Source: Candidatus Woesearchaeota archaeon (GTDB taxonomy: Archaea; Nanobdellota; Nanobdellia; Pacearchaeales; GW2011-AR1). From it: DNA of 64,000 nucleotides. Where the stretch lies: the NCBI GenBank assembly GCA_964385425.1, contig CAYLOQ010000001.1:86602-150601 (forward strand), read 5' to 3'. Within the stretch, counting starts at the first letter, position 1. Each line of letters begins with the position of its first letter. Below the pieces are notes generated by a model. The model searched no databases, was not told the origin of the DNA, and saw only the letters and a program-made list of their open reading frames with translations. The position numbers were made by a program, and so were the translations under genes. This document shows, in pieces, positions 21,781 to 54,677 of this stretch.

Positions 21781-23196
21781 ATGGAAGATGTTTACGCCAA
21801 AATTAATTCAATAGAAAATTTAACATTGGCTTGGCAAAATGCAAAGAAAGGGAAGACTAAAAAAAGATATGTAAAAAGATTCCAGAAAAATCTAAAAAGT
21901 AATTTATTATCTCTACAAAAAGAACTTAAAAATCATACCTACAAAACAAGACCTCAAAAGAAATTCATATTGAGAGATCCTAAAACAAGAAAAATATTAA
22001 AATCCGTTTTTAGAGACAGAGTTATTCATCATGCGTTATGTAATATTATCACTCCTGTTTTTGAGGGGGGATTTATCTATGATTCACACGCCAATCAAAT
22101 AGGAAAGGGGACGCTGAAGGCGTTAGAAAGATTTGACAAATTTAAAAGAAAAGTTTCTAAAAATAACTCTAGAAATTGCTATGTTTTAAAGGCAGATATA
22201 AAACACTATTTTGAAGAGATAGATCATAAAATCTTGATAGATATCATAAAAAATAAGATTAAAGATGAGAGAGTTATATGGCTCGCCTATAAAATCTTAA
22301 AGAGTAGCAGAGAGAGAAACGAGCAATCCATTAAAGATAAAGGCATGCCTTTAGGAAATTTAACATCGCAATTTTTTGCTAACGTTTACCTTAATGAATT
22401 AGACAAATTTGTTAAACACAAGTTAAGAGCAAAATATTATATAAGATATGTTGATGATTTTGTAATTCTGCATAGATCTAAGGAACAGCTTGAAAAGTGG
22501 AAGAATAAAATAGATATCTTTCTAAAAGAAAAATTGGATTTAAAATTACATCCAAATAAATCTCAGATTTTAAAATTAGAAAAAGGGATTAAATTCTTAG
22601 GCTTTAGAATTTTCAATTATCATAAGCTTTTAAGAAAGAGCAATATGAAACATTTTGAAAGAAAATTAAATCATATGAAAATAATGCTTGAGGAAGATTT
22701 ATTAAATAGAGAAGAAATTGTAGAGAAATTAGAAGGTTGGCTAGCTTATGCTGTCAAGGGTAATACTCATAAATATAGAAAATATATAGTTCAGAATTTT
22801 AATAGACTTTTTCCTATAGATAAAACAATCCCAATAAAAAATAAGAAGAAACATTTTAACTTTTTGAAAAAGGTTGATGAAAGTACTTTGGAATTTTCAG
22901 TTCAAAAAACTCTTTTTATGTTTTGCAACGGAATGAAAATCAAAGACCTTGCTGAGAAAAGAGGGATAAAAGAAGGGACAGTGTGGAAGCATTTAATAAA
23001 TTTGATAGAGCACAAACAAATTTTAGTATCTCAAGTTTTGCCTAATAAAAAGATTAGACTAATTGCAAATAAGATTTATAATAAAAAAGATGGGCTGAAG
23101 GTGATTAAAAGAAGATTGAAAAGCCATAATATTAATTATGATGAAATTGCTTGTGTTTTGGCAAGTATAAAATCAAAAAATAAAAAAGTGTCCTAG
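21781..23196 (+). CDS. DGR-type reverse transcriptase
   Basis: RT motifs 1-7 are present (DRVIHHAL; SHANQIGKGT; LKADIKHYFEEIDH; YIRYVDDFVIL; LGFRI). Motif 4 reads LGNLTSQFFANVYLNELD, i.e. the DGR-specific [ILV]GxxxSQ rather than the group II intron QGxxxSP. There is a ~150-aa C-terminal extension with a possible HTH (IKDLAEKRGIKEGTVWKHL). Confidence 0.8.
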   Translation: MEDVYAKINSIENLTLAWQNAKKGKTKKRYVKRFQKNLKSNLLSLQKELKNHTYKTRPQKKFILRDPKTRKILKSVFRDRVIHHALCNIITPVFEGGFIYDSHANQIGKGTLKALERFDKFKRKVSKNNSRNCYVLKADIKHYFEEIDHKILIDIIKNKIKDERVIWLAYKILKSSRERNEQSIKDKGMPLGNLTSQFFANVYLNELDKFVKHKLRAKYYIRYVDDFVILHRSKEQLEKWKNKIDIFLKEKLDLKLHPNKSQILKLEKGIKFLGFRIFNYHKLLRKSNMKHFERKLNHMKIMLEEDLLNREEIVEKLEGWLAYAVKGNTHKYRKYIVQNFNRLFPIDKTIPIKNKKKHFNFLKKVDESTLEFSVQKTLFMFCNGMKIKDLAEKRGIKEGTVWKHLINLIEHKQILVSQVLPNKKIRLIANKIYNKKDGLKVIKRRLKSHNINYDEIACVLASIKSKNKKVS

Positions 23197-23215
23197 TAAG
23201 CAAGTCCAAGTTATT

Positions 23216-23300
23216 AAAGGCGAAACGACCATTGTCGTTGCTAAGATTAGTCCTCGCATTCGACCTAGCCCCGCTGCCGAGCCTGTTGACGTACCACGCC
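23216..23300 (-). repeat. DGR template repeat (TR); sense strand is the minus strand
   Basis: Its 85 bp are identical to 23705-23789 except at 9 positions. All 9 carry T in this copy and C in the other on the + strand, i.e. A vs G on the minus strand. The minus-strand sense reads AWYVNRLGSGARSNARTNLSNDNGRFA, with the AAC/AAT/AGC codons typical of TRs. Confidence 0.75.
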
Positions 23301-23467
23301 GCCCAAGTTAGCCTATTTACTTCTTGTTTTCACCACCACTTCACACATTAGGTGTCGTGATTGTATTTTATAAGAGCAAGCTCCCATCGTAAATAAACGT
23401 ATAGCCTAGCTTACTTCGTAAAAACGGTTGCTAGGACAAAATTATATGATAAAAACGCTATAAAAAT

Positions 23468-24400
23468 CTATTGACTTGTTAAATCATCAATCGCTTTTCT
23501 AACCTCAGACTCATTAGCAGAACCAATATAATCTCCAATTACAGAATAAATTTGATCAGTAGTTAATAGTCTTTTTCTTAATTGGTCTCTTTCATCTAAA
23601 GCACTTCCAATTTGATCAATTTGTCCAGATTGTAACGTTCCTTCTAAACTTTGAAGTTGAACTCTTGCTTTATCGATGTCAACCTTAGCGTCTCCGACGC
23701 CATAAAAGGCGAAACGACCATCGCCGCCGCTAAGATTAGCCCTCGCACTCGACCCAGCCCCGCCGCCGAGCCTGCTGACGTACCACGCCTTCAAGACTCC
23801 TTTATCGCTAACATCAGGCAAATCTTGTCCCATCATTGTAACATCTTTATCATTAATATATTCTCTTCCTAATTCAAATGTCTTGCCAATAATTTCTGCA
23901 ACTTCATCTCCCGACCTTGCGAATTTAGAATCAACATGATCTGGATGTCCTAATTTTGTTAAAAGTAATTTGTGCTTCATTGCTTGACTTTCTGTTAAAT
24001 CTTTATTAAGAATTAATCCTTTTCTTTGAAGAGTATAAACTCCGTTTCCTTCTAATTTTTCCCATCTGCCGTCAACATCCAAGTTTACTCCGTAATTCAC
24101 TAGCTCTTCATCAGGATTGATTAAGCCTAAACCAAATCTAGCAACCTCTGTCAATTCTCTACTTCCAGTCTCATAAGGTAAAATAACTTTTACAGTTTCT
24201 CCTTTTGTTGCTGATAATGTTGAAGTATCCCAATATTGATCCCTTATTTCAGGATTTTCAATTCCATATTTTCTTATGTCAGCTTCTGAAAGAATAACAC
24301 CTTCGCCTTTTTCATATCTTGCTAAAAGCACTGGTGAGGTATCTACATTTCTACCATAACAAGGTTCTATTGTCCTTCCTTCTAATTGGATGTTTTCCAT
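23468..24400 (-). CDS. DGR target (variable) protein
   Basis: 310 aa with no signal peptide. The VR lies at aa ~205-231 (KAWYVSRLGGGAGSSARANLSGGDGRFAFYGVGD) and is followed by an ~80-aa helical C-terminal tail. Confidence 0.7.
   Translation of the reverse strand: MENIQLEGRTIEPCYGRNVDTSPVLLARYEKGEGVILSEADIRKYGIENPEIRDQYWDTSTLSATKGETVKVILPYETGSRELTEVARFGLGLINPDEELVNYGVNLDVDGRWEKLEGNGVYTLQRKGLILNKDLTESQAMKHKLLLTKLGHPDHVDSKFARSGDEVAEIIGKTFELGREYINDKDVTMMGQDLPDVSDKGVLKAWYVSRLGGGAGSSARANLSGGDGRFAFYGVGDAKVDIDKARVQLQSLEGTLQSGQIDQIGSALDERDQLRKRLLTTDQIYSVIGDYIGSANESEVRKAIDDLTSQ
23687..23701 (-). promoter_or_regulatory. GC hairpin immediately 3' of the VR (5-6 bp stem GCGTC/GACGC, loop GGA on the sense strand)
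   Basis: A perfect inverted repeat, g-GCGTC-GGA-GACGC-t, 4 nt downstream (sense) of the VR homology end. The TR has no counterpart. Confidence 0.5.
23705..23789 (-). repeat. DGR variable repeat (VR) inside the target gene
   Basis: It matches the TR at 76 of 85 positions. It encodes AWYVSRLGGGAGSSARANLSGGDGRFA in frame in ORF 23468-24400. Confidence 0.75.
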
Positions 24401-30707: not shown

Positions 30708-30812
30708 GCCCCTATAGTTCAGAGGCCAAGAATGCGGCCCTCTCAAATGGCAACTTGTTGACGTTTGTCGTAGAGCACGGCCGTGACCTGAGTTCGAATC
30801 TCAGTGGGGGCG
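30708..30812 (+). tRNA. tRNA-Glu (anticodon CUC) with a 32-nt intron at the canonical 37/38 site (intron 30746-30777)
   Basis: Acceptor GCCCCTA/TGGGGGC, D-arm GTTC-AGAGGCCAA-GAAT, anticodon stem CGGCC...GGCCG, and T-arm CTGAG-TTCGAAT-CTCAG. Removing 30746-30777 leaves the anticodon loop CUCUCAC. Confidence 0.75.
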
Positions 30813-54563: not shown

Positions 54564-54677
54564 GGCTCCGTAGCTCAGCTTGGTCAGAGCACCAGACTCT
54601 TAGCAGAACCGAGGTTCCGCACCTCCTATTAATTGAGAGATATCTGGGTGTCGAGGGTTCAAATCCCTCCGGGGCCA
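54564..54677 (+). tRNA. tRNA-Lys (anticodon CUU) with a 39-nt intron at 37/38 (intron 54603-54641)
   Basis: Acceptor GGCTCCG/CGGGGCC, D-arm GCTC-AGCTTGGTCA-GAGC, anticodon stem CCAGA...TCTGG, and T-arm GAGGG-TTCAAAT-CCCTC. The spliced loop is CUCUUAA. A TATA-like tttttaaag lies ~28 bp upstream. Confidence 0.75.

Follow-up and report, generated by a model that had tools for sequence, protein, structure and literature searches.

The 310-aa open reading frame at 23468..24400 of the 64-kb window (the whole stretch of 64,000 nucleotides analyzed here), read on the minus strand from position 24400, very probably encodes a hypervariable lectin-fold protein, the AvpA-type variable protein of a complete DGR cassette in a DPANN archaeon. 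A DGR that is both complete and chromosomal forms part of the best explanation of the data, and its target is a further member of the already described archaeal AvpA class. The assignment draws on the reading frame itself, whose length and N terminus (MENIQLEGRTIEPCYG) are as given in a preliminary description made from the sequence alone, on its homologues and on an AF2 model. Searches of Pfam, NCBIfam, and PADLOC produced no match for the target protein, and 114 homologues were identified in Woese-, Pace-, and Nanoarchaeota MAGs. DPANN homologues were found both with and without an adjacent reverse transcriptase (RT), there being none within 6–10 kb at loci L001, L003, L008, and L016–L019. 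The reading frame upstream of the target (161 aa) was considered as an Avd-like gene and rejected, having no family match in Pfam or NCBIfam and being unlinked to the cassette at other loci.

The variable region (VR; 23699..23791, minus strand) comprises residues 204–234 and is marked by mismatches to the template repeat at adenines and by the entropy of homologues. The template repeat (TR; 23213..23300, minus strand) is a non-coding, intergenic segment, evident from its alignment with the VR and as the sole other match to the family profile within the window, where no further VRs or paralogues were found. Alignment of 23702–23789 with the TR revealed 78 identical bases out of 88, with all ten mismatches located at TR adenines (nine A>G and one A>T); as adenines make up only 20 of the 88 TR bases, the hypergeometric chance of this is ∼4e-8. 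Together with a convergent RT nearby, this pattern bears out the earlier proposal that the protein is a DGR target. The aligned bases cover residues 204–233, and codon 234 is AAC in the TR and GGC in the VR, so that the VR probably extends to residue 234. Translated in frame, the TR reads AWYVNRLGSGARSNARTNLSNDNGRFAFN, in agreement with the peptide reported before, and 14–15 of its codons contain adenine. In the present allele, eight codons are altered by A>G to give a Gly/Ser-rich loop, as had been described for residues ∼205–231, and codon 233 is altered by A>T.

Across 64 close homologues, entropy amounts to 2.39 bits at the adenine-containing TR codons as compared with 0.65 bits at the remaining VR codons. 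The variable positions accept G, D, N, S, Y, R, and W and are interspersed with the invariant residues Trp206, Leu211, Ser217, Ala219, Leu223, Phe230, and Phe232. When 14 related cassettes were pooled, 153 of 165 TR/VR mismatches fell at TR adenines (102 A>G, 50 A>T, and 1 A>C). Any base at the adenines would permit up to ∼3e11 VR variants, and A>G and A>T only, the substitution spectrum seen in the clade of the target, ∼3e9. A single VR allele was assembled from the source genome. In a sister lineage 80% identical to the target, proteins P0002–P0005 are identical at 288 of 288 residues outside the VR and differ at 6–10 of 29 residues within it; such VR alleles on an identical backbone indicate ongoing diversification in that lineage. 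The preponderance of A>G in the present allele was also considered as a special editing signature, which was rejected since changes in the clade run 67% to G and 33% to T, against which a ratio of nine G to one T is unremarkable.

The AF2 model of the target has an overall pLDDT of 90.3, rising to 94–99 over residues 11–230, and residues 1–235 (23696..24400, minus strand) adopt an AvpA-type C-type lectin fold. The best match in a Foldseek search of the PDB, and the sole significant one, was AvpA (5IOO_A; E = 1.7e-7, probability 1.00, TM(target) 0.64), with ∼12% identity in the structural alignment; a search of the BFVD viral structures gave nothing at E < 1. AvpA represents a separate, non-FGE subclass of CLec proteins (PMC5006420; PMC6328139). 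The C-type lectin fold suspected earlier to hold the VR is thus supported by both the model and the match to 5IOO. The N-terminal strands (residues 4–6 and 9–16) are integral to the fold, leaving no cleavable leader. When mapped onto the model, variable codons 207–227 begin at the end of strand 202–208 and end before strand 228–234 (GRFAFYG), and so lie in the loop between the last two strands, as in AvpA (PMC5006420), with codons 233–234 varying in addition. Toward its 3′ end the VR contains an invariant segment, GGTCGTTTCGCCTTT (23705..23719, minus strand; identical in the TR at 23216–23230), that specifies the residues GRFAF in the final CLec strand; it is IMH-like, its counterpart in AvpA being the IMH-encoded RFxGV strand (PMC5006420). 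Directly 3′ of the VR and in frame, a DNA hairpin with a GRA triloop, GCGTC-GGA-GACGC (23688..23700, minus strand), codes for a conserved VGDA linker; of 12 related loci that were examined, 10 conserve the hairpin as DNA.

On sequence grounds, bridging proteins connect the target family to AvpA, and the connection extends to the ∼30 residues that end the tail. Neither phmmer nor the close-family profile matched any PDB sequence, AvpA included, whereas a widened profile (A2) matched only 5IOO_A (E = 0.028), in an alignment spanning the VR and the tail. When 1.8 billion library proteins were searched, the family profile A1 matched P0147 (E = 1e-27). AvpA, for which only the C-terminal 98 residues (157–254) served as the query, matches P0214 (35 bits) and P0147 (30 bits). 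In hhalign the same fragment and A1 gave a probability of 3%, and its search of a large protein database returned one short relative, with AvpA itself not among the matches. Residues 280–307 of the target tail are 39% identical to residues 229–256 of P0214. The published AvpA motifs GxxVVVYAH, HPxxxPFxG, and RFxGV (PMC5006420) have approximate counterparts in the target only with altered spacing (G67-ETVKVILPY, H152-PDHVDSKFARSG, and R229-FAFYGV, respectively), and the A2 consensus of more distant relatives contains GRxVG and RHPDxV.

The C-terminal tail (residues 241–310; 23471..23680, minus strand) was characterized from AF2 models, dN/dS, and its links to AvpA. The internal VR is followed by 76 residues, close to the ∼80-aa helical tail noted previously, in which AF2 predicts, with moderate confidence, four helices of 10, 20, 11, and 16 residues; at the breaks between them, homologues carry Pro or Gly. 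The coiled-coil-like heptads ascribed to this region did not hold up: judged on the AF2 helices, a coiled coil was taken to be one uninterrupted amphipathic helix of at least four heptads, and all four helices are short. The last ∼30 residues (23471–23566) are homologous to the AvpA tail via the A2 profile, P0214, P0147, and P0072, the target version of the tail having ∼35 additional residues, which form two further helices. A Foldseek search of the PDB with the tail alone gave nothing at E < 5. Within the family, tails are long and target-like, AvpA-like, of a third type, or lacking altogether. Comparison with seven orthologues gave dN/dS values of 0.17–0.41 for the tail with substantial dS (0.17–0.8), indicating purifying selection.

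The DGR reverse transcriptase (21781..23196, plus strand) is a 471-aa protein convergent with the target and the TR, its end being 17 nt from the TR. It contains an RVT_1 domain (E = 4.5e-24) and a C-terminal HTH_40 domain (E = 1.9e-15), with LGNLTSQ at residue 191 conforming to the DGR-type motif [LIV]GxxxSQ and the catalytic YVDD at 223; its matches in NCBIfam and PADLOC are to generic RTs, below the cut-off. No Avd-like accessory gene was found in the cassette, and there is no reading frame between the RT and the target. Avd or HRDC accessory genes are frequent in DGRs but neither universal nor defining. The order target, RT-16, TR, and convergent RT was found at four genome loci and ∼12 metagenome loci, and the convergent RT is shared by L005, L010, L011, L015, and most of L020–L033.

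The Rfam RT-16 RNA motif (23303..23435, minus strand) directly precedes the TR on its 5′ side and shares its strand; the match is full-length at 73.2 bits (gathering score 50). The 5′ part of the RT-16 region pairs with the 3′ flank of the TR (23174..23215, minus strand), which overlaps the last RT codons on the opposite strand, and the long-range helix joins ∼23401–23439 to 23189–23215. The motif was located at the same position in L005, L007, L010, L011, and L015, and a scan with its core recovered 14 further loci. In an alignment of 13 sequences, 96.5% of the cells in the helix are paired, three pairs show compensatory changes, and the covariation score was reached by none of 500 shuffles; the signal comes from this comparative analysis alone, folding of the single TR-region sequence being not significant (z = −0.7). 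An oligo-T run at 23174–23188 within the flank likely marks where the TR RNA ends; scans for bacterial promoters and terminators are uninformative for archaeal DNA. The position of RT-16 and its long-range pairing may be more novel than the target protein itself.

AvpA, a Nanoarchaeota DGR variable protein (5IOO; Handa et al. 2016), has an internal VR, a hairpin within the coding sequence, and a C-terminal extension that is predicted to be helical and disordered in the crystal, and internal VRs have been called common in Nanoarchaeota DGR targets (PMC5006420). The target resembles AvpA in being a leaderless, single-domain, non-FGE C-type lectin fold protein of a DPANN host, in having a short VR that is internal and separates the last two strands, the final strand being encoded by the invariant 3′ end of the VR, in its hairpin within the coding sequence, and in a helical C-terminal extension with a homologous terminal unit. 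It differs in the length of the tail (∼76 residues as compared with 46, with two extra helices), in the moderate AF2 confidence of this region as against disorder in the AvpA crystal, and in its convergent RT carrying an HTH_40 domain. The DUSEL4 Nanoarchaeota cassettes (Paul et al. 2015; PMC4372165) are likewise archaeal, chromosomal DGRs with an internal VR, adenine-specific substitutions, and a hairpin with a GRA trinucleotide loop within the target gene. However, their IMH motif (TGGGGT in the VR and TGGAAT in the TR) is absent from the present cassette, as is an Avd-like ORF between the RT and the target, and a 5′ RT-16 element with long-range pairing is not described for them (PMC4372165).

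With Bordetella phage BPP-1 (Mtd, Avd, TR, and bRT) the cassette shares the logic of adenine-specific mutagenic retrohoming from TR to VR in a lectin-fold protein, together with a VR whose 3′ segment is invariant and a hairpin downstream of the VR. In contrast, Mtd is FGE-type and trimeric with its VR at the extreme C terminus, an Avd gene is present, and the RT-10 RNA (TR-to-brt region) lies 3′ of the TR with a co-directional RT, where the present cassette has RT-16 on the 5′ side and a convergent RT. The cyanobacterial DGR proteins (Vallota-Eastman et al. 2020; PMC7517822) are also lectin-fold targets, mostly predicted to be cytosolic, with frequent Ser/Thr kinase fusions, and the same layout is found in P0237, a distant relative in which a Ser/Thr kinase domain is fused to a lectin-type domain of the target family. 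They differ in being bacterial, multidomain proteins with C-terminal lectin-fold domains of another sequence family, whereas the target is a single domain with a tail. The preliminary description had called the target atypical for lacking a signal peptide and having an internal VR and a helical tail; this is true relative to bacterial and phage DGR targets only, and not relative to the DGRs of Nanoarchaeota and DPANN, for which the internal VR, the hairpin within the target gene, and the C-terminal extension are already published. The apparent anomaly is thereby removed, the seemingly atypical features being those that characterize the AvpA class among archaeal DGR targets.

The mechanism proposed here builds on the layout, the adenine-specific differences, and the ongoing diversification in the sister lineage, all of which were observed. 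By analogy with the Bordetella system, a transcript from the minus strand, made downstream of the target gene, would comprise RT-16, the TR, and a short 3′ flank. The convergent RT would copy the TR into a cDNA mutated at adenines, and this cDNA, directed by the hairpin and the invariant GGTCGTTTCGCCTTT segment, would replace the VR. The variable loop (residues ∼207–227 plus 233–234) would thus be rewritten from the TR, with the lectin-fold head as a putative variable ligand-binding surface and the constant tail as a putative adaptor coupling the head to a fixed partner.

The segment encoded by the TR is rich in Asn, as is true of every CLec VR, and this would suit a conventional DGR target with an FGE-type C-type lectin fold, such as Mtd, TvpA, or TaqVP, a resemblance also raised in the preliminary description. 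The resemblance is contradicted by the non-FGE nature of AvpA as the sole significant PDB match, and such a target is exceedingly improbable, given that no match to Pfam FGE-sulfatase or DUF1566 was found in the target or 90 relatives, that no FGE, Mtd, TvpA, or TaqVP chain is among the Foldseek matches with E ≤ 10, and that the VR is ∼30 residues after the penultimate strand and not ∼45 from or just after strand β3 (PMC5006420). It is also very unlikely that the region after the VR is kept for DNA cis-elements of retrohoming and not for the function of the tail as a protein, even though the hairpin is a DNA element that forces the VGDA peptide and Roux et al. argue that C-terminal VRs free cis-elements from coding constraint. 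Beyond the hairpin, the dS and dN/dS values given above apply, the latter being similar to those of the lectin-fold scaffold; moreover, the terminal tail unit is conserved as protein out to AvpA-like proteins with unrelated DNA, and diversified members that have no tail exist (P0050 and P0051). A fossil DGR, in which the VR was written once, the A>G pattern records one old event, and the lectin-fold protein is now fixed, would be compatible with the single allele, with the many family members that have no nearby RT, and with L007, where RT-16 and a degenerate TR copy persist with no RT within 10 kb. In the source genome, however, the RT reading frame is intact with its catalytic motifs, as are RT-16 and the long-range helix, and the TR and VR have no non-adenine mismatch, which implies no drift since the last homing event. 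In addition, the sister lineage has more than one VR allele while the rest of its protein is identical, and the nine G to one T of the present allele is no outlier relative to its clade. A fossil is accordingly improbable.

The location of the AvpA-type target is a separate matter. Kyte-Doolittle hydropathy of the target peaks at a 19-residue mean of 0.40, and its first 40 residues contain no hydrophobic run; by this measure the protein has neither a Sec-type leader nor a transmembrane segment, consistent with the preliminary description, which had found no signal peptide. Likewise, 219 of 222 superfamily representatives (∼98%) remain below a 19-residue mean of 1.6 and have no hydrophobic segment, and of the three exceptions one is a truncated fragment resembling a chimera, one has its segment inside the fold, and one is an unrelated protein. 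A protein that is not Sec-exported and would act in the cytoplasm is slightly favored; the absent export signals fit a cytoplasmic protein without proving this location, and cytosolic DGR targets have already been reported in cyanobacteria (PMC7517822). A surface-displayed adhesin that attaches an episymbiont to its host, using unconventional export or anchoring with the tail as a docking or export element, is a serious possibility although short of an even chance. The authors of work on AvpA and DPANN DGRs favor a role in symbiont-host interaction (PMC5006420; PMC8867640), the modularity of the tail is as expected of an attachment adaptor, and a fragmentary relative, P0127, has a lipoprotein-like leader. 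Against this stand the lack of a signal peptide or transmembrane segment in the target and nearly all relatives, a tail with no match to known secretion or anchoring modules, and the neighborhoods of the family genes, in which no secretion, pilus, or S-layer gene was conserved at the loci compared and the neighbors are housekeeping genes differing from locus to locus. P0127 itself lacks the greater part of the fold and is probably chimeric or fragmentary. More tentatively, and with some doubt, the AvpA-type proteins could be cytoplasmic hypervariable receptors, in which the head would sense intracellular ligands of viral or host origin and the helical module would signal to a fixed partner.

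As a result of this analysis, the AvpA class gains a family of over 100 proteins for which Pfam has no model, and the tail of AvpA that is disordered in the crystal proves to belong to a C-terminal module that is conserved, under selection, and swappable. Through this cassette the Rfam motif RT-16, previously an orphan, is also placed in a DGR, and its arrangement points to an RNA architecture unlike the Bordetella paradigm. Given the near-total lack of export signals in the superfamily, DPANN DGRs may diversify surface adhesins, as is usually assumed, or cytoplasmic receptors; if the latter is true, these proteins would constitute an archaeal, DGR-driven system of intracellular recognition in organisms with genomes of ∼0.5 Mb.

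The target ORF of the DGR (24400..23468, reverse strand) encodes a protein of 310 aa that starts with MENIQLEGRTIEPCYG. An 88-nt repeat occurs twice on the same strand, with the VR copy inside the ORF (23702-23789) and the TR copy intergenic (23213-23300). Comparison on the coding strand shows 10 differences between them, all at adenines of the TR (nine A>G and one A>T); adenines make up 20 of the 88 TR bases, and the hypergeometric chance of 10/10 differences falling on them, computed from the TR/VR alignment, is ~4e-8. In-frame translation of the TR gives AWYVNRLGSGARSNARTNLSNDNGRFAFN, and the VR encodes AWYVSRLGGGAGSSARANLSGGDGRFAFY (residues 204-233, probably to 234), with 76 residues of the target lying C-terminal to it. 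About 3e11 VR variants are possible if any base may replace adenine, and a computed 3e9 if only the observed changes, A>G and A>T, are allowed. A search of the whole window revealed no second VR or target paralogue. The preliminary description of a 310-aa ORF with an internal VR, no leader, and a tail after the VR is correct in every element, given the ORF, repeat, hydropathy, and tail length as measured; its interpretation stands only in part.

The target has 114 homologues, none of which carries a Pfam domain in this region, and those that are named come from MAGs of Woesearchaeota, Pacearchaeota, and Nanoarchaeota. Among close homologues, the hypervariability of the VR falls exactly on codons containing A in the TR, with a mean entropy of 2.39 bits as against 0.65 bits at the remaining VR codons. 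The proteins P0002-P0005, from a sister lineage 80% identical to the target, are identical at 288/288 positions outside the VR and differ at 6-10 of its 29 residues, which is direct evidence for diversification still going on there. Pooled TR-to-VR changes from 14 cassettes (the window and loci within L005-L033) comprise 102 A>G, 50 A>T, one A>C, and 12 non-adenine changes. The all-G look of the target's allele is thus not unusual, and the strongly skewed spectrum in practice leaves AAY codons about 9 accessible amino acids, down from 15.

The AlphaFold2 model of the target, built from an 84-sequence alignment, has an overall pLDDT of 90.3, with 94-99 over residues 11-230. A Foldseek search of the PDB with this model gave a sole significant match, AvpA (5IOO_A; E=1.7e-7, prob 1.00, TM 0.64 on the matched PDB chain), from the record entitled 'Accommodation of massive sequence variation in Nanoarchaeota by the C-type lectin fold'; the second-best match had an E value of 0.24. 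With no FGE, Mtd, TvpA, or TaqVP chain in the PDB list, the FGE-type fold tentatively proposed before finds no support. The target has a lectin-fold scaffold with a variable loop between the last two strands: mapped onto the predicted structure, the variable codons run from the end of strand 202-208 and cease before strand 228-234 (GRFAFYG), the product of the invariant 3' VR end. In AvpA, the variable codons likewise lie between the last strands, with the last strand formed from the invariant VR end (Handa et al., PMC5006420).

Direct sequence searches with the target or its close family did not recover AvpA. An exhaustive profile search produced 193 more distant relatives, and the widened profile that includes them (A2) matched a single PDB sequence, 5IOO_A (E=0.028), in an alignment spanning the VR and tail. 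AvpA residues 157-254, taken from this alignment, score 35 and 30 bits against the bridging proteins P0214 and P0147, which the close-family profile in turn matches with E values of 1e-8 and 1e-27, respectively. The end of the target tail (residues 280-307, TTDQIYSVIGDYIGSANESEVRKAIDDL) is 39% identical to that of P0214 (TLEQIITTMKEYVAPTNINEVRKALEKL), which aligns in turn with AvpA PTIEQILKVSKNFVPKATRKEYENKIKALY; the terminal two-helix unit is thus a module common to the superfamily. The target is a further member of the AvpA-type class of variable proteins in archaeal DGRs, and its version of the C-terminal module is longer.

The additional length of this module amounts to about 35 residues (helices 242-251 and 258-277). 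The tail is modeled as four short helices rather than a single long coiled coil, against the coiled-coil-like heptads read in it before. It is acidic (pI 4.4) and has no fold match in the PDB. Its dN/dS of 0.17-0.41 (scaffold, 0.18-0.41; VR, 0.6-2.4) indicates that the tail is under purifying selection as a protein. The tail is modular across the family, being of the long target type, AvpA-like (P0072, P0196), of a third type (P0038, P0044-48), or missing (P0050, P0051).

In AvpA, 46 residues predicted as two helices come after the VR, and a hairpin/cruciform lies inside the coding sequence of this C-terminal extension (Handa et al., PMC5006420); such hairpins all have GRA trinucleotide loops and lie inside the target gene (Paul et al. 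2015, PMC4372165). The target carries an in-frame DNA hairpin, GCGTC-GGA-GACGC (23688-23700, reverse strand), which encodes a conserved VGDA linker and whose DNA is itself conserved at most of the related loci. Features such as an internal VR are atypical among DGR targets generally (Roux 2021; Wu 2018), as the preliminary description held, but since Handa et al. and Paul et al. describe the same features, they are the norm within the archaeal AvpA class.

The RT gene (21781-23196, forward strand) runs toward the target and TR in convergent orientation, starts 22 nt past the PheRS beta gene, and ends 17 nt from the TR. Its 471-aa product comprises RVT_1 and a C-terminal HTH_40 and carries the DGR-type motif LGNLTSQ plus YVDD; the cassette contains no Avd-like gene. 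The order target, RT-16, TR, convergent RT recurs at four related loci (L005, L010, L011, L015) and in nearly all of 14 metagenome loci found with the RT-16 core pattern. For further family members, no RT lies within 6-10 kb. At one locus without a nearby RT (L017, 4535-10831), a target homologue adjoins PheRS alpha and beta along with an ORF homologous to the 161-aa one of the window; PheRS genes likewise adjoin the cassette of the window, which is part of a 505-kb scaffold, and this chromosomal neighborhood thus either predates the RT/TR cassette or is independent of it. At another (L007, 10702-11420), an intact RT-16 comes after a family member, together with a degenerate copy of the VR and some of the tail (76% identity, with many mismatches at bases other than adenine), and there is no RT within 10 kb; the locus has the look of a cassette in decay or of a relic of TR origin by duplication. 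Elsewhere in the window, two tRNA matches on the forward strand (30708-30812 and 54564-54677; 105 and 114 nt) are probably intron-containing archaeal tRNAs, in keeping with an archaeal genome.

An Rfam scan identified a full-length RT-16 RNA (RF03019; 73 bits, gathering score 50) at 23303-23435 on the reverse strand, exactly between the target stop codon and the TR and immediately 5' of the latter. RT-16 is an orphan motif in Rfam, and its association with a DGR is seen at the window, L005, L010, L011, L015, and L020-L033. A long-range helix joins the 5' part of the RT-16 region to the 3' flank of the TR (23174-23215, reverse strand), which is followed by an oligo-T run. Across 13 cassettes, 96.5% of cells are paired between this 5' part and the first ~27 nt past the 3' end of the TR (21-48% in slid controls), with compensatory changes at three pairs and a covariation score reached by 0/500 shuffles. 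Support for the local P1 hairpin of the Rfam model is poor in the same set (68% paired, no covariation). With its flanks paired, the TR would sit in a loop closed by them, ahead of the oligo-T run, where the TR RNA likely ends; this run falls within the final RT codons, read from the other strand. In the Bordetella DGR the structured RNA follows the TR on its 3' side (Weinberg 2017), whereas RT-16 lies 5' of it here; RT-16 and the flank helix would be an RNA architecture unlike that of Bordetella, still a lead given the small sample of closely related sequences.

Neither a hydrophobic leader nor a membrane segment occurs in the target, whose maximum 19-residue Kyte-Doolittle mean of 0.40 bears out the signal peptide's reported absence. 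A hydrophobic segment fit for a signal peptide or membrane helix is also absent from 219 of 222 superfamily representatives, the exceptions being P0127 (a truncated chimera-like fragment), P0153 (with a segment internal to the fold), and one unrelated protein. N-terminal extensions, where found, are hydrophilic, and the gene neighbors of family members are housekeeping genes that differ between loci. Surface display of the target by an unconventional route is a less likely reading, the lack of such segments in target and superfamily speaking against it. We infer, with modest confidence, that the target does not pass through Sec and probably acts in the cytoplasm, which is somewhat likelier than such display. 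P0127 (168 aa), alone in the family in bearing an export signal, joins a lipoprotein-like leader (MKRLIFGAIIISLTLLISC) to just the last ~120 family residues (VR and tail) and is probably an assembly or gene-call chimera. In P0237 (853 aa, from the representative library), a distant relative that has no hydrophobic segment, a Ser/Thr kinase domain (Pfam Pkinase, E=1e-9) is N-terminal to an AvpA-like lectin-type domain, a layout that recalls cyanobacterial DGR targets, most of them predicted to be cytosolic (PMC7517822).

By analogy with the Bordetella paradigm and the work on AvpA, the cassette, with its parts in conserved order, would function as follows. The RT-16/TR RNA would be transcribed from the reverse strand, and the RT would make from it a cDNA mutated at adenines. 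This cDNA would replace the VR, steered by the invariant segment and the hairpin. The variable loop of the resulting protein may then bind a ligand, with the tail acting as a putative adaptor.
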